Shown: positions 1 to 35,106 of the stretch, piece by piece
Layout: the number at the start of each line of letters is the position of its first letter
Position numbering within the stretch: the first letter of the stretch is position 1
Source of the DNA: a virus
Reading direction: 5' to 3' (one strand)
DNA: 35,106 nt
IMG/VR virus record: IMGVR_UViG_3300027909_000015
The notes under the pieces: model-generated
Told to the model about the DNA's origin: nothing
The model's input: only the letters and a program-made list of their open reading frames with translations
Database searches by the model: none
Translations under genes and position numbers: made by a program

Positions 1-127
1 CAGGGCTCGTAGCAGGCATGAGCGCCAACTGTCCAGTCTGACCTAAGGCGACAGCCAAGGGGACAGAGGCTTCGATCATGCGGTGACGCAGGCTTTCCAA
101 GTGCAGGCTATCCACGTTGACTTGGAC
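1..127. repeat. Terminal direct repeat copy A, identical to 34980-35106 (circular-closure overlap)
   Basis: Base-by-base reading shows 1-127 (cagggctcgtagcagg...cacgttgacttggac) is repeated exactly at 34980-35106. Confidence 0.95.
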
Positions 128-5956: not shown

Positions 5957-6309
5957 TTGGGCACTACTTGCTGACGCTCACCGAGGAACAGGAAGATCGG
6001 GTGCTGACCCGCTCAATGCGCCCCGGGGCATATACCGACCTCGCTCCCCTTGGGCCCTGTTTGGTGGGGACGGTGGAGCGTTCCGTGACGGGGTTTGATG
6101 TCTGCACGCCGTCGCTGCGCGACTGGCCCCCCGACGAATTGGGCGATTCCGTCGAGTGCCGATACGACGGTCTGTGCAAGCGCTTCGGGGCGCCCCGTGT
6201 GAATGCTGCGATCCGCAATCGTATCCTGTCGAACCGTGCGCGCCGTGAACTCGCCCCCGCCTCCCGGAATACGCCGTTGGTCTCTCTGGGGGAGCGCCTG
6301 ACCCCGTGA
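5953..6309 (+). CDS. Hypothetical protein, 118 aa
   Basis: In the frame of track ORF 5767-6309. GTG 5953 forms a GTGA overlap. Confidence 0.55.
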   Translation: MIGHYLLTLTEEQEDRVLTRSMRPGAYTDLAPLGPCLVGTVERSVTGFDVCTPSLRDWPPDELGDSVECRYDGLCKRFGAPRVNAAIRNRILSNRARRELAPASRNTPLVSLGERLTP

Positions 6310-6566
6310 CGCCCCAGGACGTATTGCAAGCGGCTCGGCGCGAATTGGCCCAGCTCTGGGAGCGCCCCGTCGCGAAGCAGGATTGCGACTACTGCGGGCG
6401 CCCCGAGTGGCACGCGGTGGATGACAATGAGGAGCCCGTCTGCCTCCAATGCGCCAAGAACCGCGTCGAGTCGATGGCCGAGGCGGTGCGCGGGATCGGA
6501 GGCGTCGAGTACCTGGCGTGGAAAGAAAAGCGCCAAGCCGAGGGAGCGCGGTTCGCGGATGATTAG
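6306..6566 (+). CDS. Hypothetical CxxC...CxxC protein, 86 aa
   Basis: Track ORF with a GTGA overlap to the upstream gene. Confidence 0.6.
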   Translation: MTPQDVLQAARRELAQLWERPVAKQDCDYCGRPEWHAVDDNEEPVCLQCAKNRVESMAEAVRGIGGVEYLAWKEKRQAEGARFADD

Positions 6567-7023
6567 CCCGGTGAAAGTGCCGAAACCCAAACGGGCGAAG
6601 CGGAAGCCCTCCGGCCCCCACCCCCTGAAACGGAGCCGGATGAAATCCGTGAACCGGAAGCGGGGCGGCTCGGCGTTCCCGAAACAGCGCGACAAGGCGT
6701 TTTGCCGCTGGGTCGCGACGGAAAATCCGTGCATCGGAACGGGGCTCGTATTCCCGCGCCGCATCTCGCTGCACGATGCGGGCGACTATCTGCTGGGGCG
6801 CTTCGTGCATTACTGCTGGGGCGAAAACACCCCCGCACACGTCGGGAAGCATCGGGCGACCGGCGCGCCAGACCGGGGCCGTGTCGTCTGTATGTGCAAG
6901 GCGCTCCACACGTACTACGACCGCCGCCGCTCGGAATGCAATCAGGTGCTGTCCGAAGAAATCTTGCAGCGCGGGGCGTTGCGGCTCCAGGCCCTCTATG
7001 AAAGCGAGCACCCCACCCCATGA
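6559..7023 (+). CDS. NinG/DUF968-like Cys/His protein (tentative), 154 aa
   Basis: In the frame of track ORF 6421-7023, starting at ATG 6559. It has a basic N-terminus followed by FCRWV..NPCIGTG...TPAHVGKHRATGAPDRGRVVCMCKALHTYYD. This resembles the C..C...aH...G.g.K..D...PLC..CH pattern of that family. Confidence 0.4.
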   Translation: MISPVKVPKPKRAKRKPSGPHPLKRSRMKSVNRKRGGSAFPKQRDKAFCRWVATENPCIGTGLVFPRRISLHDAGDYLLGRFVHYCWGENTPAHVGKHRATGAPDRGRVVCMCKALHTYYDRRRSECNQVLSEEILQRGALRLQALYESEHPTP

Positions 7024-9587: not shown

Positions 9588-10168
9588 TCGGGGTTTTCAT
9601 TTCCGTGGACGACCGCCCCCACAAGCTCCCGATGGGCTGGGTGATCCAAGAGAATGGCTGTTGGGATTGGGTGGGCACCAAGAATAGTCGCGGATACGGC
9701 ACCATGTGGGATTCTGGTATGCCGGGGCGCAGAATCGGGGCGCATCGTGTCGGCTACGAGCGGGTCAAGGGACCGATCCCGGCTGGCCTGACGATCGACC
9801 ATCTGTGCAGGAATCCGTCCTGCGGCAATCCTGACCACCTAGAAGCCGTGACGCTGATGGAGAACATCCGACGCGGCAATTGGCCTCGCGCTGGGCCCGG
9901 GCAGCGAACGCACTGCAACTATGGGCATCCGTTGTCGGGGGACAACCTGTACGTGGAGACTAGTCGGGCGCATCCCTATAAGTCGCGCCGGTGCAGAATC
10001 TGCCAACGGGCCAACGGAAAAAAGAAACGCTCTAAGAGGCGACCGTATTTCGTTGCGCGCTGTGACTGCGGGTGGCGCGGTCGCCGGTGGGTAGGATTAG
10101 GTAGTCCCTGTCCGAAATGCGGCAAGAAACCGCACGCCTATTCCCCGACACCAAGGAGCGCTCGATGA
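9584..10168 (+). CDS. HNH endonuclease (HNH_3-type), paralogue 1, 194 aa
   Basis: In the frame of track ORF 9398-10168, starting at ATG 9584. It carries GCWDWVG...GYG...AHRVGYE...IDHLCRNPSCGNPDHLEAVT..EN plus C-terminal Cys pairs. Confidence 0.8.
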   Translation: MIGVFISVDDRPHKLPMGWVIQENGCWDWVGTKNSRGYGTMWDSGMPGRRIGAHRVGYERVKGPIPAGLTIDHLCRNPSCGNPDHLEAVTLMENIRRGNWPRAGPGQRTHCNYGHPLSGDNLYVETSRAHPYKSRRCRICQRANGKKKRSKRRPYFVARCDCGWRGRRWVGLGSPCPKCGKKPHAYSPTPRSAR

Positions 10169-10359: not shown

Positions 10360-10774
10360 CGGAATGGATTCTGTGACGCAGCCGTCTAGTGGGGAGCCCG
10401 AAGGCCGGGACGCGCCGCCCCCGGATGACTTTCGGACGTGGGCAGAAGCACTCGTGCGCCACCTTCGCGTGAGCGCCGACAACGCCACCAGCAGGCAGCA
10501 CGAAGGCGATTGCCGCGCCGCGATCGAAGTGATCGAGCGACTACTGGCGCGGGGCTCGTCTCAGGCGGGCAGCGCCCCAATGCGAGTAACGGATGAAATG
10601 GTGGAGGCGTATGAGCGGGCATTGTGGGGCGCCACCTGGGACAAAATCCCCGACGACGATACCGACGAATGGGCAGGACGGAAACGTCGCCGCGCGGATG
10701 GCCGCGAATTGCTGGAGAAAATGTTCGGCGTGTTGGGGGCGGACAGCGCCGGAAGCCCAGGAGACAAAAAGTGA
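10349..10774 (+). CDS. Hypothetical protein, 141 aa
   Basis: In the frame of track ORF 10169-10774, starting at ATG 10349. Confidence 0.55.
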   Translation: MDADGMDSVTQPSSGEPEGRDAPPPDDFRTWAEALVRHLRVSADNATSRQHEGDCRAAIEVIERLLARGSSQAGSAPMRVTDEMVEAYERALWGATWDKIPDDDTDEWAGRKRRRADGRELLEKMFGVLGADSAGSPGDKK

Positions 10775-11202
10775 TCGGCGTATTTATCCCCGTTGACGAT
10801 AAGCCGCACCGGCTCCCGCAAGGCTGGGTGATCCAGGAGAACGGCTGCTGGGATTGGGTGGGCGCACTCAGCCCTGAGGGCTACGCCACTGGTCGCGCTC
10901 ATCGCGTCAGCTACGAGCGATTCGTCGGCCCCATTCCAGATGGCTTGACGATAGACCACCTGTGTCGGAACCGCCGCTGTGGGAATCCCGACCATATGGA
11001 GGCCGTAACGAATCGGGTGAACGTCCTGCGCGGGATCGGGCCTACCGCACGGCACGCGAGGCAAACCCATTGCAAGTACGGGCATCCATTCTCCCCGGAG
11101 AACACCTATTGGCGCACCAACGGTGCACGGCGGTGTCGCCATTGCCAGCGGGTCTACCTGAAAGAATACAAGTTGACTTGGCGGAAAGGGGTAACGACAT
11201 GA
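10771..11202 (+). CDS. HNH endonuclease (HNH_3-type), paralogue 2, 143 aa
   Basis: GTG 10771 forms a GTGA overlap. The sequence VIGVFIPVDDKPHRLPQGWVIQENGCWDWVG...IDHLCRNRRCGNPDHMEAVT aligns along its length with 9584-10168. Confidence 0.8.
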   Translation: MIGVFIPVDDKPHRLPQGWVIQENGCWDWVGALSPEGYATGRAHRVSYERFVGPIPDGLTIDHLCRNRRCGNPDHMEAVTNRVNVLRGIGPTARHARQTHCKYGHPFSPENTYWRTNGARRCRHCQRVYLKEYKLTWRKGVTT

Positions 11203-11985: not shown

Positions 11986-12164
11986 ATGAGCGCCCCAACA
12001 CGCAAAATTAAGCGTTCAACGCCTCAGGGACGTGTCCCGGGGCGCTGCGAAGAGTGCGCGGGGGGCGCTTCCCACCGGGGAAGGGCGGGAGCGCGAAGCG
12101 GTTTTGCGGCCCGAAATGCCGGTGGCTGGCGTGGGCCAAGCGGCGGTTTGGGCGGCCAGCCTAA
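11986..12164 (+). pseudogene. Small CxxC...FCxxxCR zinc-ribbon gene split by a 1-nt frame change at the G6 run 12060-12065
   Basis: Frame 1 reads MSAPTRKIKRSTPQGRVPGRCEECAGG. Frame 0 reads RFPPGKGGSAKRFCGPKCRWLAWAKRRFGRPA and stops at 12162-12164. Joined, they give the common phage/actinobacterial motif C..C...F.P......FC...CR..A...RR. Confidence 0.4.
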
Positions 12165-12354
12165 CCCCCGCACCCAGCGCAAGGCTGATTCCAAGGAATC
12201 CCGCGTCGGGGCGAGCGCCAAGACCTGCCCGAGCTGCGAGTTTTGCTCCGCGTGCCGCCCTGCTAAGAACCCCACCGCATAGAACACGCAGCACCCGAGC
12301 ACGGATAGAATCAACGCCAGCGCGGGGAGGGGATTCGGGACGGGGGCCGGGACA

Positions 12355-12401: not shown

Positions 12402-12719
12402 TCAGGTGCTCCGCTTGAGCATCGCCAGCAACTCGGCGGCGATTACGGTGCCCAAGGTCGCGGCTGGGGCCGCCCCGAGTCCCGAGATATCGACCCCGCT
12501 ACTCGCATGAGCCGCCACCCACGGCGCGGCTAACGCCCCCACCAACGTGATGGCGGGCTGAATCTTCCGAAAGAACGGGCTCTTGGCAATCGCAAAGTCC
12601 GTCTTCTTGACCTGCGCCAAGACGAAGGACGTGCCCAAGGCCCCGACTCCGGCGAACACCGCCCCCCACGCGGATGCGGTATCGTTGACGACCTGCAACA
12701 GTAGTGCGAGGTAATGCAT
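12402..12719 (-). CDS. Holin-like membrane protein, 105 aa
   Basis: Track ORF with three hydrophobic Ala/Gly-rich segments and a charged C-terminus (LKRST). It lies immediately downstream of the endolysin. Confidence 0.5.
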   Translation of the reverse strand: MHYLALLLQVVNDTASAWGAVFAGVGALGTSFVLAQVKKTDFAIAKSPFFRKIQPAITLVGALAAPWVAAHASSGVDISGLGAAPAATLGTVIAAELLAMLKRST

Positions 12720-12748: not shown

Positions 12749-13135
12749 CTAATCGGCGCGAATCAGCAAGCGGCTCCCCCCATTCACCGGGAGGAGTGCG
12801 AGGTGGATGTGAGAGTCCTGCTTGGAGTTAACCAGTTCGAGCTCCACCCCTCTGGCCCCCGCCACTTGGTACACGGCTTTGACAAACCGCCACAGGGCTG
12901 AGGGATTCGTGATCCACTTCAAGTCAAAGGCCCGGCCTTGCAAGTGCCACGAAGTCGGACTAGAACCGGACGCGGCGGCGTTCTCCTCTGCGGTTCTGGC
13001 GTCCGAAGTCACGACGAGGGGCTGGCCGTAGGCCGCCCGCACATCATCCAAGAAGTGCGCGGCCTCGGCCTCCAAGAGTTCGGGGTGGCGAAACTCGTCC
13101 AGCCGGAAGTACCGCAGATTAGCCGTGAGGGGCAT
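12749..13135 (-). CDS. Endolysin, peptidase M15 (VanY / L-alanyl-D-glutamate peptidase-like), 128 aa
   Basis: In the frame of track ORF 12749-13174, starting at ATG 13135. It has the zinc-ligand pattern SWHLQGRAFD ... DSHIHLAL and LDEFRHPE near the N-terminus. Confidence 0.8.
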   Translation of the reverse strand: MPLTANLRYFRLDEFRHPELLEAEAAHFLDDVRAAYGQPLVVTSDARTAEENAAASGSSPTSWHLQGRAFDLKWITNPSALWRFVKAVYQVAGARGVELELVNSKQDSHIHLALLPVNGGSRLLIRAD

Positions 13136-13448
13136 CCGGGGCTTTCTCTTTGATGACGGCTTCCAACTTCTCAACCAACTGCTCGGGATCGAAGGGCTTG
13201 TAGAGATCGGGCTGCTCGCTCGGGTCCCCGGAGATCACGATAAAGGGCACCCCCGGATAGAGTTCCCGCAAATGCCTGCCGTCCCCATTCGGGAGCCGGA
13301 TATCCGCCACCACCACATCAAACGGCCCCGGCTGCGCCTTCGCCTCTTGGAGCGAGTTCGCCGTCAAGACCTGCCAGCCCTTCTTTGACAACACCCGTTG
13401 GGCCAAGACCGTGATAATAGGCTCGTCATCCACGATCAGGATGTTCAC
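13119..13448 (-). CDS. Stand-alone response-regulator receiver (CheY-like REC) domain protein, 109 aa
   Basis: Track ORF MNILIVDDEP...FDVVVADIRLPNGDG...FIVISG...YKPF. It has the acidic pair D7/D8, phospho-acceptor D49, S73 and K84-P-F. There is no output domain. The GTG start forms a GTGA overlap. Confidence 0.8.
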   Translation of the reverse strand: MNILIVDDEPIITVLAQRVLSKKGWQVLTANSLQEAKAQPGPFDVVVADIRLPNGDGRHLRELYPGVPFIVISGDPSEQPDLYKPFDPEQLVEKLEAVIKEKAPDAPHG

Positions 13449-13822
13449 TTGGCGTCCTTCCGCTTGGGGCGATCGGATTGCTGGAAGAAATAGGCCGTCA
13501 AGCGGTTCTCCACCGTCTTCTCGATCTTCGTCTCCAAGTCTCGCGTCATCTGATAGAACCCTTCCGTCATCTTCAAATCAACATGATGACGCAGGTCCCG
13601 CGTTTGGGTGTCCGCATGTTCCTTGAGGTCCCGCTTCAAGGTATCGACATACTCCTTGAGGGCGACGGTCTGGGTCGCGTTCTCCGCCGCGAGGACTTTG
13701 CCGTTCTGGCCCCCGTTCCGTTTCTGGCGCACGAAGTAGTCGTAGAGCACCATCGCGAGAATCGCCCCCGCCGGGGAGGTGGCGAAGTATTCCAGAATCT
13801 TGAGGAAGGTTTCCGTGGTCAT
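13445..13822 (-). CDS. N-terminally anchored coiled-coil membrane protein, 125 aa
   Basis: In the frame of track ORF 13445-14290, starting at ATG 13822 (ATGA overlap). The TM segment is SPAGAILAMVLYDYFV, followed by a charged heptad-like region (LKEYVDTLKRDLKEHADTQTRDLRHHVDLK). Confidence 0.55.
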   Translation of the reverse strand: MTTETFLKILEYFATSPAGAILAMVLYDYFVRQKRNGGQNGKVLAAENATQTVALKEYVDTLKRDLKEHADTQTRDLRHHVDLKMTEGFYQMTRDLETKIEKTVENRLTAYFFQQSDRPKRKDAK

Positions 13823-14340
13823 GCCTTCCAGCTCGCCCAGCAAAAGAGGCCGAGACTCGTGGCGCGCACCGATTGGTAAGTGAGCCACGAGCCCAAGCCG
13901 GGGCGGAGACAGTACCCCATCCACGCCACCCACCCGAGGCCAAACGCGACGCCGATGGTCCAACGCAAGGGCACCGTGAGGCTGGGCCACGTCACGGCTA
14001 AGAGTCCGAGCCACGCCACGGTATGCACGAAGATGTCGGGCTTCGTGAGGTCGAGATTCAGGATGGCAAAAAGCGCCGTGAAGGCGAGGACGACGATGAA
14101 CCGCCACGGACGGGGCGCGAGCACCAACGCGAACAGGCTCGCTTGGGCGAACAGATACGGCGGCCCCACGGGGAAGGTACCCTCCCAATGTGACACCCAA
14201 TCGGCGACCCACGACACCCCGAACGCAGCAGCGAGCCCCCACCACATCGGGGACGGACGACGGCCCGCCGTCCAGAGTGCGGACAGCCACGCCACCGGCA
14301 CGAGGCCCATCTGGTGAGCGGCCTCGAAGACGGGCCGCAT
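13819..14340 (-). CDS. Polytopic membrane protein (about 6 TM), 173 aa
   Basis: In the frame of track ORF 13819-14391, starting at ATG 14340. It has repeated Trp-rich hydrophobic segments. Confidence 0.6.
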   Translation of the reverse strand: MRPVFEAAHQMGLVPVAWLSALWTAGRRPSPMWWGLAAAFGVSWVADWVSHWEGTFPVGPPYLFAQASLFALVLAPRPWRFIVVLAFTALFAILNLDLTKPDIFVHTVAWLGLLAVTWPSLTVPLRWTIGVAFGLGWVAWMGYCLRPGLGSWLTYQSVRATSLGLFCWASWKA

Positions 14341-14359: not shown

Positions 14360-14611
14360 CTAGCACTGTGGCGGGCAAGGGTGGGCCTCATTCAAGGGCT
14401 TGAGTCGCGCCGCGTCGGCGGTATCCGCGCCAAGCACTTCCAGCGTCGCCCGTTCATCGAAGGGGCCGTGCACGCGGAATATCCCGTCGGGGGGCGCGGC
14501 CATCATGCGGGCGCGGAGTTCGAGGAATGTGTCCCCGTAAAACGAGAGGTAGCGGATGGGGCCGTGCTTGTCGGACTCGGGCATACGATCCTCCTCAAAC
14601 GGGGGAAACAT
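14360..14611 (-). CDS. Hypothetical protein, 83 aa
   Basis: Track ORF. The ATG directly follows the TAG of the upstream gene. Confidence 0.55.
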   Translation of the reverse strand: MFPPFEEDRMPESDKHGPIRYLSFYGDTFLELRARMMAAPPDGIFRVHGPFDERATLEVLGADTADAARLKPLNEAHPCPPQC

Positions 14612-23505: not shown

Positions 23506-24158
23506 TAGACCGCCGCCCGCGTCTGGACGGACTGCCGGGACGCCACGGCGTGTTGCGCCTCAAACTCCACCATCCCGATATGGGTCACCTGCTTCGAGAG
23601 GTCGTGATCCACGAGGATCGTCGCCCCGGCCTTCCGTAGCTGCTGACAGAAGTAGAGGTCTTCACCCACGTGAGCCCGGTCATCGGGGACATACCCCATC
23701 ATGAAGCGGGGAGCTGGTACAGTGCGGAGGAGATCGGCTTGGACGAGCATGACGCCCATCCCCGTCGCCGCGACAGGCTCAAGCCCGGTCGAGTCTTCCT
23801 CGGTATAGACCCGCGTCATCGGGTCGCCCAAGGACTTGACGCTCACGGGATGAAACGGGGGCCGTCTGGTCGTGTAGTTCGCGGCCACGACGGGTTGCTC
23901 GTGCGCGAGGAGCCGAACCAATGCGTCGGTCGGAAATCGCATGTCCGAGTCCAGATAGAGCAGGAAGTCGCATTGGGCCCGGAGGGCGGCGTCGGTCGTC
24001 TTTTCCCGTAACTCGGGCAGCCAGCAGCCGGTTGCCAGAAACCGCCGGAGGTCCAGGTCGGGACGCGCCGCAACAGTGTAAGCGAGGAGCCCGGCGAGGT
24101 CGTACGAGTGCCAGGCGAAGACCAAATCTGTCGAGACCAAGCAGACACCGACTCTCAT
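23505..24158 (-). CDS. GT-A fold glycosyltransferase (family-2-like), 217 aa
   Basis: Track ORF with DxD motif LLYLDSDMRF and a later GEDLYFCQQLRKAG motif. Its ATG forms an ATGA overlap with the Endo VII stop. Confidence 0.65.
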   Translation of the reverse strand: MRVGVCLVSTDLVFAWHSYDLAGLLAYTVAARPDLDLRRFLATGCWLPELREKTTDAALRAQCDFLLYLDSDMRFPTDALVRLLAHEQPVVAANYTTRRPPFHPVSVKSLGDPMTRVYTEEDSTGLEPVAATGMGVMLVQADLLRTVPAPRFMMGYVPDDRAHVGEDLYFCQQLRKAGATILVDHDLSKQVTHIGMVEFEAQHAVASRQSVQTRAAV

Positions 24159-24598
24159 CCTTTCTCCACGTAATCGGCGGCGCGACGTAGGGCGCGCACA
24201 TTGTCCCTGAAACTCCCCAGCCCTTGATTACAACCAGAGCAGAGGAGCCCGCGCACCTTCCCAGTTTTGTGGTCGTGATCGAGATGCGTTCCAGCGCCAA
24301 GCGCCTGCAAGACGTTGCCGCAAAGGGCGCAACATTCGCCCTGCTTCTCAAATAGGGCGTGGTACTGATCGAGCGTCACCCCATAAACCCGCGCCAGCCA
24401 TCCGAACTTGCGATTGGCCGTCACGGCTTCGGGATTGTCTTTCTCCCACTTGCGGCAGGCCGCGATATGGCGTTCGGGATACTTTTCCCGCCACGTTTTC
24501 TTGCGGGCAGAGGAACACGTCCGGCAGGTACGCTGCCCGCTGGTGGGATAGGTGTACCAATTGCTATGTCCGTTCTGGCATATCACTTGTTTAGTCAT
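24155..24598 (-). CDS. Recombination endonuclease VII family nuclease (free-standing homing-type), 147 aa
   Basis: In the frame of track ORF 24155-24634, starting at ATG 24598. It carries the signature HLDHDHKTGKVRGLLCSGCNQGLG. Confidence 0.8.
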   Translation of the reverse strand: MTKQVICQNGHSNWYTYPTSGQRTCRTCSSARKKTWREKYPERHIAACRKWEKDNPEAVTANRKFGWLARVYGVTLDQYHALFEKQGECCALCGNVLQALGAGTHLDHDHKTGKVRGLLCSGCNQGLGSFRDNVRALRRAADYVEKG

Positions 24599-24648
24599 CG
24601 CCACGCCCAGACATGATCGGTCGAGACAAGACACACCCCCACTCTCAC
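24595..24648 (-). pseudogene. 17-codon remnant or leader copy of the glycosyltransferase N-terminus
   Basis: Its GTG forms a GTGA overlap with the upstream stop, and its TGA forms an ATGA overlap with the Endo VII ATG. By hand count it matches the GT start at 35/51 nt and 13/17 aa. Confidence 0.55.
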
Positions 24649-34872: not shown

Positions 34873-35106
34873 TCATTGTGAGGCCACACCTTCACTAGCT
34901 GCAACATCCTGCATGGCATTCTGCACTGCAAGTTCTTGCGTTCCACACGTGAGAGGCGTAGTCACTGCCTCACTGCCCGCAGGGCTCGTAGCAGGCATGA
35001 GCGCCAACTGTCCAGTCTGACCTAAGGCGACAGCCAAGGGGACAGAGGCTTCGATCATGCGGTGACGCAGGCTTTCCAAGTGCAGGCTATCCACGTTGAC
35101 TTGGAC
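34873..35106 (-). CDS. terS: Terminase small subunit, C-terminal part (34980-35106 duplicates 1-127)
   Basis: Track ORF 34873-35094 (..DSLHLESLRHRMIEASVPLAV..) is the in-frame continuation of the ORF that leaves the window at position 1. Confidence 0.7.
   Translation of the reverse strand, partial: VQVNVDSLHLESLRHRMIEASVPLAVALGQTGQLALMPATSPAGSEAVTTPLTCGTQELAVQNAMQDVAASEGVASQ
34980..35106. repeat. Terminal direct repeat copy B, identical to 1-127
   Basis: Same 127-nt string as the window start. It lies inside the terS reading frame. Confidence 0.95.

Follow-up and report, generated by a model that had tools for sequence, protein, structure and literature searches.

How does a response-regulator receiver that carries no output domain come to lie among the lysis genes of a phage, and what might it do there? 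The question is raised by a 35,106-nt stretch of soil phage DNA, IMG/VR record IMGVR_UViG_3300027909_000015 (the window in what follows), whose minus strand encodes a 109-aa CheY-like protein (13119–13448, GTG start) between the gene for a coiled-coil protein and that for an M15 endolysin. An earlier note, made by reading the sequence alone, had described the protein as a stand-alone receiver embedded in the lysis cassette and had suggested that it could let the signalling state of the host feed into lysis timing. We find that the 109-aa protein is a genuine stand-alone receiver, that it belongs to an undescribed, phage-restricted receiver subfamily, and that its conserved partners are the three genes upstream of it and not the endolysin.

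The assignment to the receiver family comes from profile searches and from structure prediction. The Pfam Response_reg profile (PF00072) gives the protein a score of 44 bits, the cut-off being 30.2 (E=2.7e-11), and so places it in the family that the earlier note had named; the alignment covers receiver residues 3–77 only (profile positions 1–81 of 111). The unannotated phage protein family phrog_731 matches at E=3e-13. When a profile was made from 39 family members, it could be aligned over its whole length with 233 solved receivers (best match the NtrC-family structure 1zit, E=1.4e-15), and the alignment leaves an 11-residue gap exactly at helix α4. The AlphaFold2 model of the 109-aa protein alone (pLDDT 83.3, pTM 0.72) runs β1-α1-β2-α2-β3-α3-β4, then a turn, then β5-α5. 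A 3-residue turn at 76–78 replaces α4, β5 lies at 82–83 and α5 at 88–102; the five strands and helices α1, α2, α3 and α5 are all present, giving the (βα)5 topology expected of a receiver. Foldseek returned 394 PDB matches at E<=0.001, of which the top 50 listed are nearly all receiver domains (TMq 0.70–0.84); the matches listed include 6TNE, the receiver of CckA, and 3NHM. Searches against NCBIfam gave generic receiver similarity only, with no specific affinity to CckA, CpdR or DivK over the OmpR and TorS receivers.

The catalytic quintet of a phospho-accepting receiver is in place, each residue at the position read in the earlier note: D7, D8, D49 (in VVADIRLP), S73 and K84 (in K84-P85-F86). 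A search of 5.8 billion proteins yielded 42 relatives, all of them stand-alone, metagenomic and 100–116 aa long. Across 39 sequences, with identity down to 48%, there is no variation at D49 (on whose conservation the earlier proposal had leaned), K84, P85 or the β3-α3 loop LPNGDGRHL, and conservation of D7, D8 and S73 is 90% or higher; position 73 is Ser in 51 of 54 sequences and Thr in 3. Measured against close relatives, the receiver has a dN/dS of 0.06–0.13, as compared with 0.03–0.09 for the endolysin and 0.2–0.6 for the three upstream partners, and it is the slowest-evolving gene of the four-gene unit described below. Judged from these sequences, the receiver is probably phosphorylatable on D49.

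The features of a canonical switch-type receiver, namely α4, the β5 aromatic residue and the Y-T coupling of CheY and OmpR, are missing from this protein. In the window receiver helix α4 is physically deleted and the β5 aromatic switch is lost: S73 and K84 are separated by 11 residues (about 22 in CheY), and the switch position, three before the Lys, is Asp81. The description of the protein as output-less with a shortened α4 region was, therefore, accurate, the AlphaFold2 model having a turn only at this place. Connectors of 20, 18, 15 and 11 residues occur across the family; the 11-residue form is found in 37 of the 54 distinct sequences and forms of 15–20 residues in the other 17. At the β5 switch position, 36 of the 37 short forms have Asp and every one of the 17 long forms has Phe. 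The β4 motif P-F-x-x-x-S-G followed by F, Y or W is present in 32 of 54 sequences, whereas the clade of the window has Asp at the last position (PFIVISGD). Receivers without α4 have been grouped as the FATGUY class, which includes CckA-Rec, Sma0114, SdrG, CpdR and MrrA (Brüderlin et al., Nat Commun 2023; PMC9981736). In this class α4 and the aromatic switch are missing, a PFxFATGY-like (FxSGY-like) motif is found at β4, and the domains shuttle or accept phosphoryl groups without allosteric use of the α4-β5-α5 face (PMC9981736). One copy is longer: at locus L031 (1575–2066) the receiver open reading frame (ORF) runs on past about residue 88 into a 163-aa product, and this copy is either frameshifted or pseudogenised, or else an assembly error.

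To place the receiver in its genomic setting, 41 loci from IMG/VR, from JGI, ENA and Logan assemblies and from metagenome contigs were collected (cited here by number, L001 and so on), and the cassette genes were mapped in them by tblastn. At all receiver loci with enough flank, the same three genes lie upstream of the receiver, in the order cc, mem and small with increasing distance. In the window these are cc (13445–13822, minus strand; 125 aa, with a hydrophobic N-terminal helix and a coiled coil), which is directly upstream of the receiver, mem (13819–14340, minus strand; a 173-aa seven-helix membrane protein in its AlphaFold2 model) and small (14360–14611, minus strand; 83 aa), with which the conserved unit of four genes begins. 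Stop and start codons overlap as ATGA between mem and cc, and as GTGA between cc and the receiver, the latter as stated in the earlier note, which had proposed that the three genes are translationally coupled; small is a fourth conserved gene of the unit, to be added to these three. The small gene is directly upstream of the 7-transmembrane (7-TM) gene in nearly all loci, lies about 0.6 kb upstream in L002, L025 and L026, and in L039 was missed by tblastn and is evident from the sequence. In L012 cc went undetected by tblastn, yet a 137-aa ORF fills its position. The unit is found across podovirus-like, siphovirus-like and other backbones.

Of the three partners, small is a soluble protein with an invariant C-terminal CPPxC, usually in the form N-[ED]-[AS]-H-x-C-P-P-x-C; F24, V59, N74, C79, P80, P81 and C83 are invariant in the family alignment, which, like that of cc, was built from the fetched loci. 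The CPPxC motif could be metal-binding or redox-active. No relative of small was found in Pfam, PHROG, NCBIfam or the PDB.

The earlier note had counted roughly six TM helices in mem; the AlphaFold2 model is instead a seven-helix bundle (pLDDT 94.5, pTM 0.88). Family means of Lys plus Arg in successive loops alternate as 2.05/0.05/1.27/0.56/2.12/0.29, followed by 1.85 at the C-terminus, and because basic residues alternate between loops in this way we assign mem an N-out/C-in topology. Its conserved polar residues are S43, D47, Y62, Q66, R126, Q156, R159 and C167, and the invariant ones among them (S43, D47, Y62, Q66, Q156 and R159) are mostly in the periplasmic half of the bundle. An exhaustive HMM search gave 372 representative clusters, the best 150 of which are 115–233 aa long. 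No relative of mem was found in Pfam, PHROG, NCBIfam or among PDB sequences, and the Foldseek matches were non-significant and of generic 7-TM type, rhodopsins appearing at E>=0.47. We considered mem as a relative of rhodopsins, GPCRs, PAQR proteins or LrgB and rejected all four, the structural matches being non-significant and generic and no sequence family matching. The nearest viral structural neighbour, likewise non-significant (E=0.46, TMq 0.59), is the 7-TM part of a phage histidine kinase. That part is the N-terminus of BFVD entry A0A6J5LDC5, a 760-aa BaeS-like histidine kinase of an uncultured Caudovirales phage, an entry which shows that phage-encoded kinases exist elsewhere.

The third partner, cc, has an N-terminal hydrophobic helix, then a basic stretch, then a helical or coiled-coil region. 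The membrane anchor attributed to it in the earlier note is clear in relatives (Kyte-Doolittle 2.02) but only borderline in the window (1.42). Because basic residues follow the hydrophobic helix, the coiled coil is predicted to be cytoplasmic. The most conserved part of the protein is the motif T-x-HFDQLRRDLExKIEK, found in 19 of 20 distinct sequences; a homologue search of the large database returned two proteins only. The corresponding region of the window cc reads GFYQMTRDLETKIEK, and the gene carries in addition an 11-codon insertion, with no frameshift. This insertion resembles a local duplication. A central patch of the window cc (13530–13640, minus strand) is highly diverged from L020, in which the receiver is 96% identical, and the flanks of the patch are nearly identical. 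We also asked whether cc could be an i-spanin. This is unlikely, given that the basic residues after the TM helix would leave the coiled coil in the cytoplasm, and it is further disfavoured by the separate spanin-like genes of L011 and L033.

The neighbourhood of the unit is more varied than the unit itself. The linkage of receiver and endolysin genes that the earlier note had suggested surveying holds in part: an endolysin gene (M15_3 or CHAP) is found within about 2.5 kb in 8 of 14 informative receiver lineages but not in a siphovirus-like clade of 6, and immediate adjacency to the M15 gene is confined to the window, L020 and L021. In the clade of L001 and L004 the receiver is followed by a secreted fn3 protein and then by M15 and a holin-like gene; the contigs L002, L025 and L026 stop within or just past the fn3 gene. 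The fn3 protein of L004 (8309–8944, 211 aa) has a hydrophobic N-terminus that looks signal-peptide-like by eye; the protein also occurs in L001, L005, L006 and L024, with diverged copies in L002, L025 and L026. In L012 and L022 a 2-TM holin-like gene and then M15 come after the receiver. L033 has a CHAP endolysin gene 0.8 kb downstream of the receiver, then a spanin-like gene, and in L011 the holin-like, M15 and spanin-like genes are upstream, with the unit at least 1.4 kb after the endolysin. In the siphovirus-like lineages (L003, L007, L009, L034, L035 and L041), a head-closure gene (phrog_161) and tail genes are downstream of the unit; upstream are capsid/adaptor genes (L007, L009) or large fibre-like genes (L003, L041).

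Loci in which more distantly related copies of small and mem occur as a pair, with neither receiver nor cc, bear on the same question. Such pairs adjoin five endolysin types: M15_4 in L014, M15_3 in L039, NlpC/P60 in L040, an Rv2525c-like glycoside hydrolase in L019, and DUF5675 together with a 2-TM holin-like gene in L016. Genes for short TM-plus-coiled-coil proteins and spanin-like genes are frequent companions of these pairs. The small and 7-TM core is thus a recurrent lysis-cassette component in uncultivated, mostly podovirus-like phages, and because it adjoins five unrelated endolysin types even where the receiver is missing, we regard the module as a whole as lysis-associated. The mem family may by itself represent a component of lysis cassettes that has gone unrecognised.

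Two further kinds of gene were seen in these neighbourhoods. Just upstream of the receiver-less small, 7-TM and M15_4 region of L014 is a gene for a stand-alone 138-aa PAS protein (6240–6656; PAS_9, E=5.7e-14), which brings another kind of signalling domain into this neighbourhood. The spanin-like proteins (177–205 aa) begin with a TM helix, continue as a long coiled coil and end in a hydrophobic C-terminus that contains Cys; they are encoded near the endolysin gene at L011 5572–6105, L014 9592–10209, L033 2474–3070, L039 7638–8201 and L040 8772–9326, directly after it in three loci, and are possibly unimolecular spanins. The L011 member had no family match.

Comparison of the window with its closest relatives revealed that the unit and the lysis genes are mosaic. 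The receiver is 81–87% identical between the window and L004, L021 and L022, and small, mem and cc are only 41–48% identical in the same comparisons; this contrast places a recombination boundary between cc and the receiver. Against L004 and L021 the receiver, M15 and holin-like genes are 78–94% identical, the M15 gene alone 92–94%, whereas M15 of L022 is 63% identical to that of the window. In the podovirus clade the receiver thus has a common evolutionary history with the endolysin/holin block (81–94% identity), and small, mem and cc have been swapped; the receiver tolerates very different cc partners.

The source of phosphoryl groups for D49 was sought in the genome itself. An exact 127-bp direct terminal repeat (window 1–127 = 34980–35106) indicates that the window spans the whole of a phage genome, which has about 34,979 bp and 63.6% G+C; the repeat reflects either a circle-assembled genome or genuine terminal repeats. 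A scan of about 45 ORFs, among them every ORF of at least 200 aa, revealed no HisKA, HATPase/HATPase_c or Hpt domain, several structural ORFs being compared with PHROGs only and receiving structural assignments there. The statement of the earlier note that no histidine kinase is encoded thus agrees with the scan, and no such gene was found in the flanks of the related loci. Because the complete phage genome encodes no kinase, any phosphoryl donor would be host-derived. The host is likely a diderm. The nearest isolate for the portal is Sinorhizobium phage phiM5 (38%), DNA similarity to deposited phages is limited to trivial 69-nt matches, and there are no tRNA genes in the window. The receiver and 7-TM families were not found in 185,579 species genomes, hence no prophage copy there, and are absent from 50,697 deposited phage records, in which the best generic receiver matches are at most 34% identical.

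The unit belongs to a tight run of seven ORFs on the minus strand (12.0–14.6 kb), in the order small, mem, cc, receiver, M15, holin-like and a gene for a 96-aa protein. As the earlier note had described, the receiver gene overlaps the endolysin gene, by 17 nt (ATG at 13135), and a 105-aa holin-like gene comes next. The endolysin (12749–13135, minus strand; 128 aa) is a Peptidase M15_3 protein (PF08291, E=2.8e-12; phrog_894 endolysin, E=9.6e-11) and is 92–94% identical in L004, L020 and L021. The holin-like protein (12402–12719, minus strand) has 2–3 hydrophobic segments by hydropathy and no Pfam, PHROG or NCBIfam match, so that its label reflects position and architecture only; the gene is kept after the endolysin gene in L001, L004 and L020 at 78–94% identity. 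The last gene of the operon (12024–12314, minus strand) encodes the 96-aa protein, in which a TM helix at the N-terminus (Kyte-Doolittle 2.17) is combined with a Pro-rich tail. It had no family match in profile searches, has weak homologues at the same position in L001/L004, L012 and L033, and is a possible spanin or other lysis accessory. A terminator-like hairpin and T-run (12010–12024, minus strand) would mark the end of the late/lysis operon; it is a consensus match only, and the 2 terminator-like consensus sites found are fewer than the shuffle expectation of 3.9. The scan found no promoter-like or terminator-like sites inside or flanking the cassette, the sigma-70 model used being one that may not suit the host. 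Elsewhere, the minus strand also codes for large terminase, a T7-like portal, scaffold, major capsid and tail/fibre proteins by PHROG assignment. An Endonuclease VII gene lies within the structural module (24155–24634, minus strand; E=3.4e-25). In the early region there is an HNH_3 endonuclease gene (10624–11202, plus strand), and antisense ORFs at 9754–9918 and 10911–11105 suggest a second HNH paralogue.

One interpretation of these observations, which we favour but hold tentatively and with less than even confidence, is that the receiver is the phospho-switch subunit of a membrane complex of the lysis programme. According to this hypothesis, small, 7-TM, cc and receiver would be co-translated as a four-gene unit, the receiver last, and expressed late from the structural/lysis operon; we infer late co-expression from the gene order, the overlapping stop and start codons and the lack of promoter- or terminator-like sites inside the cassette. 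By the positive-inside rule, the 7-TM protein and cc would be inner-membrane proteins, the coiled coil facing the cytoplasm. The conserved chemistry suggests that D49 would then be phosphorylated by a host donor, which might be a histidine kinase, an Hpt protein or acetyl-phosphate. The receiver could bind or release the cc/7-TM complex according to its phosphorylation state, a step that is conjecture on our part, and in this way some late function of the complex at the membrane (when lysis begins, or whether it is licensed, being the most plausible candidates) would be tuned to the signalling or energy state of the host. The combined evidence suggests that late infection or lysis is responsive to the signalling state of the host. 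A more ambitious version, in our view an unlikely one, makes the four genes a phage membrane signalling device that gates the holin and endolysin so that lysis fires only in a given host or environmental state. The 7-TM protein would be a receptor-like sensor with a periplasm-facing polar pocket, cc a coiled-coil adaptor, the CPPxC protein a cofactor protein and the receiver a host-charged subunit.

Several observations weigh against a receiver that times lysis. The siphovirus-like clade demonstrates that adjacency of the unit to lysis genes is not required, and L007 and L009 have no endolysin domain within about 8 kb (precomputed Pfam matches of called genes). Lysis cassettes are, moreover, insertion hot-spots for accessory "moron" genes, so that position by itself says little. 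A specific receiver–cc interface is made less probable by the low identity (only about 40%) of some cc proteins with which the receiver is paired, and by the window cc, in which the conserved His is Gly (HFDQLRRDL to GFYQMTRDL). Judged by their lengths, none of the best 150 of the 372 mem relatives is fused to a signalling domain or a kinase. The loss of α4 and of the aromatic switch, which removes the classical α4-β5-α5 output surface, argues against a CheY-style switch that binds according to its phosphorylation and in favour of a shuttle or sink (PMC9981736). Control of lysis timing by the receiver is something that we infer.

Three other explanations have to be considered beside the lysis complex. 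In one, which is possible though on the unlikely side, the receiver is a sink or shuttle for a host phosphorelay: it would take or pass on phosphoryl groups of host kinases or Hpt proteins, with the lysis genes as neighbours and not targets. On this reading cc and the 7-TM protein would tether it near membrane kinases, and a host two-component response such as envelope stress or cell-cycle control would be blunted or redirected late in infection. The architecture matches the FATGUY Rec-only/Rec_inter class that acts in phosphotransfer (PMC9981736), as the 32 of 54 aromatic PFxxxSG motifs, the 37 of 54 11-residue linkers, the 36 of 37 Asp switch positions and the presence of 6TNE and 3NHM among the Foldseek matches listed all suggest, and such a FATGUY-like α4-less architecture would fit the draining or shuttling of host phosphoryl groups at least as well as lysis timing. 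A slow rate of evolution (0.06–0.13 versus 0.2–0.6) is expected if the main partner is a conserved host protein, and the absence of a phage kinase and the position of the unit away from lysis genes in the siphovirus-like clade point the same way. Yet a sink would leave the invariant coupling to three phage membrane-associated genes unexplained, the window clade has Asp and not an aromatic residue after SG, and NCBIfam shows no preference for CckA, CpdR or DivK over OmpR/TorS receivers. Alternatively, the unit might be a moron module unrelated to lysis, an autonomous, receiver-regulated membrane device, for example for superinfection exclusion, envelope modification or the sensing of a periplasmic ligand, that would simply tend to insert at late-operon junctions; this we consider improbable. 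Movement as a block among at least three backbones or positions (after tail genes; downstream of the lysis genes in L011; between head and tail genes) is what such a module would show, the internal mosaicism speaks of frequent recombination, the conserved polar cluster in the outer half of the modelled 7-TM bundle would resemble a ligand pocket, and the best viral structural neighbour of that bundle, though non-significant (E=0.46, TMq 0.59), belongs to a phage histidine kinase. The association of small and 7-TM with five unrelated endolysin types in independent lineages is, however, more than hot-spot insertion readily explains, and the window has no flanking promoter- or terminator-like sites (in a sigma-70 scan that may not suit the host). 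Nor was there any meaningful PADLOC match, for which reason a defence or anti-defence system was also rejected.

The remaining explanation, which we regard as very doubtful, takes two forms. The protein might be a pseudo-receiver, an unphosphorylated structural adaptor, and atypical receivers that work independently of phosphorylation do exist; against this, all five catalytic positions are conserved under strong purifying selection. Or the unit might hold an internal relay in which the conserved His of cc donates phosphoryl groups to the receiver. The near-invariance of this His in the most conserved cc motif (19 of 20 distinct sequences) would suit a relay, as would the finding that receivers lacking α4 usually have helical partners of the DHp or Hpt kind (PMC9981736). 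For the window phage we nevertheless rejected cc as a His phosphodonor or DHp/Hpt-like protein, since the position is Gly and no frameshift accounts for it. In addition, the cc profile matched no DHp or Hpt structure among solved structures, its sole match being the coiled coil of the yeast kinetochore protein Ame1, which is probably compositional, and no ATP-binding kinase domain was found in the scanned ORFs.

The timing of phage lysis is understood almost wholly through holin/antiholin membrane kinetics and transcriptional control. If the lysis-complex hypothesis is true, a kinase-less receiver in a lysis-cassette membrane module would be a direct route from host signalling or energy state to late infection; alternatively, the receiver would let the phage drain host two-component signalling. 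The unlikely gating device, if real, would amount to a post-translational, phospho-gated lysis clock that differs from the described holin/antiholin schemes. The 7-TM family, with its 372 clusters, and its CPPxC partner point to an unrecognised lysis-cassette component in uncultivated soil phages, and the receiver family is a natural α4-deletion series with coupled loss of the switch, useful for studies of receiver allostery.

How does the unit compare with known systems? The divergent cREC domains of NAD/ADP-ribose systems (PMC7824862) were considered and set aside, the context being unfit and the window receiver matching canonical receivers. With the FATGUY receivers it shares a single-domain (βα)5 core in which the β4-β5 connector is not folded as α4, the acidic pocket, Asp, Ser/Thr and Lys intact, and the loss of the β5 aromatic switch, as in Sma0114; the β4 consensus of the family resembles their P-F-x-x-x-[ST]-G-aromatic sequence. 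Unlike in those proteins, α4 is deleted (11-residue connector) and not merely disordered, the window clade has Asp and not Tyr or Phe after SG, no HWE/HisKA2 kinase, Hpt or ChpT partner is encoded nearby, and the receiver is always coupled to three phage membrane-associated genes; in NCBIfam it has no specific sequence affinity to FATGUY proteins. Stand-alone CheY-like auxiliary genes are known in Alteromonas phages V22 (gp30) and A5 (gp11) (PMC10579305). These too encode receiver-only proteins of no assigned function in the late/structural region of a tailed phage, but they are 147–149 aa long, about 120 residues of which form the receiver region (IPR001789), follow tail-fibre genes, and have been described without 7-TM, coiled-coil or CPPxC partners or linkage to lysis.

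The concept that host phospho-signalling state bears on when the lysis genes of a phage or gene transfer agent (GTA) act has precedents. LytSR controls the holin-like Cid/Lrg proteins. In phages of Alphaproteobacteria, host CtrA has been proposed to defer lysis transcriptionally ("lytic deferment"; PMC9437464). In these systems, however, a host DNA-binding response regulator acts at promoters, whereas the window has a phage-carried, output-less receiver inside the late operon, and any control by it would, being exerted by a phage-encoded protein without an output domain, be post-translational. The antiholins and lysis-inhibition regulators T4 RI/RIII, λ S107 and P1 LydB act through protein–protein interactions in the membrane. 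They are timing accessories encoded in or near lysis cassettes, as proposed here, with no relation in sequence or fold, and to our knowledge neither a phospho-accepting receiver nor a 7-TM protein is part of any of these systems. The published literature that we searched holds no description of a receiver in a lysis cassette, as the earlier note had surmised, or of this four-gene unit. Stand-alone CheY-like genes of phages being known already, what is new here is a phage-restricted receiver subfamily in a new gene context.

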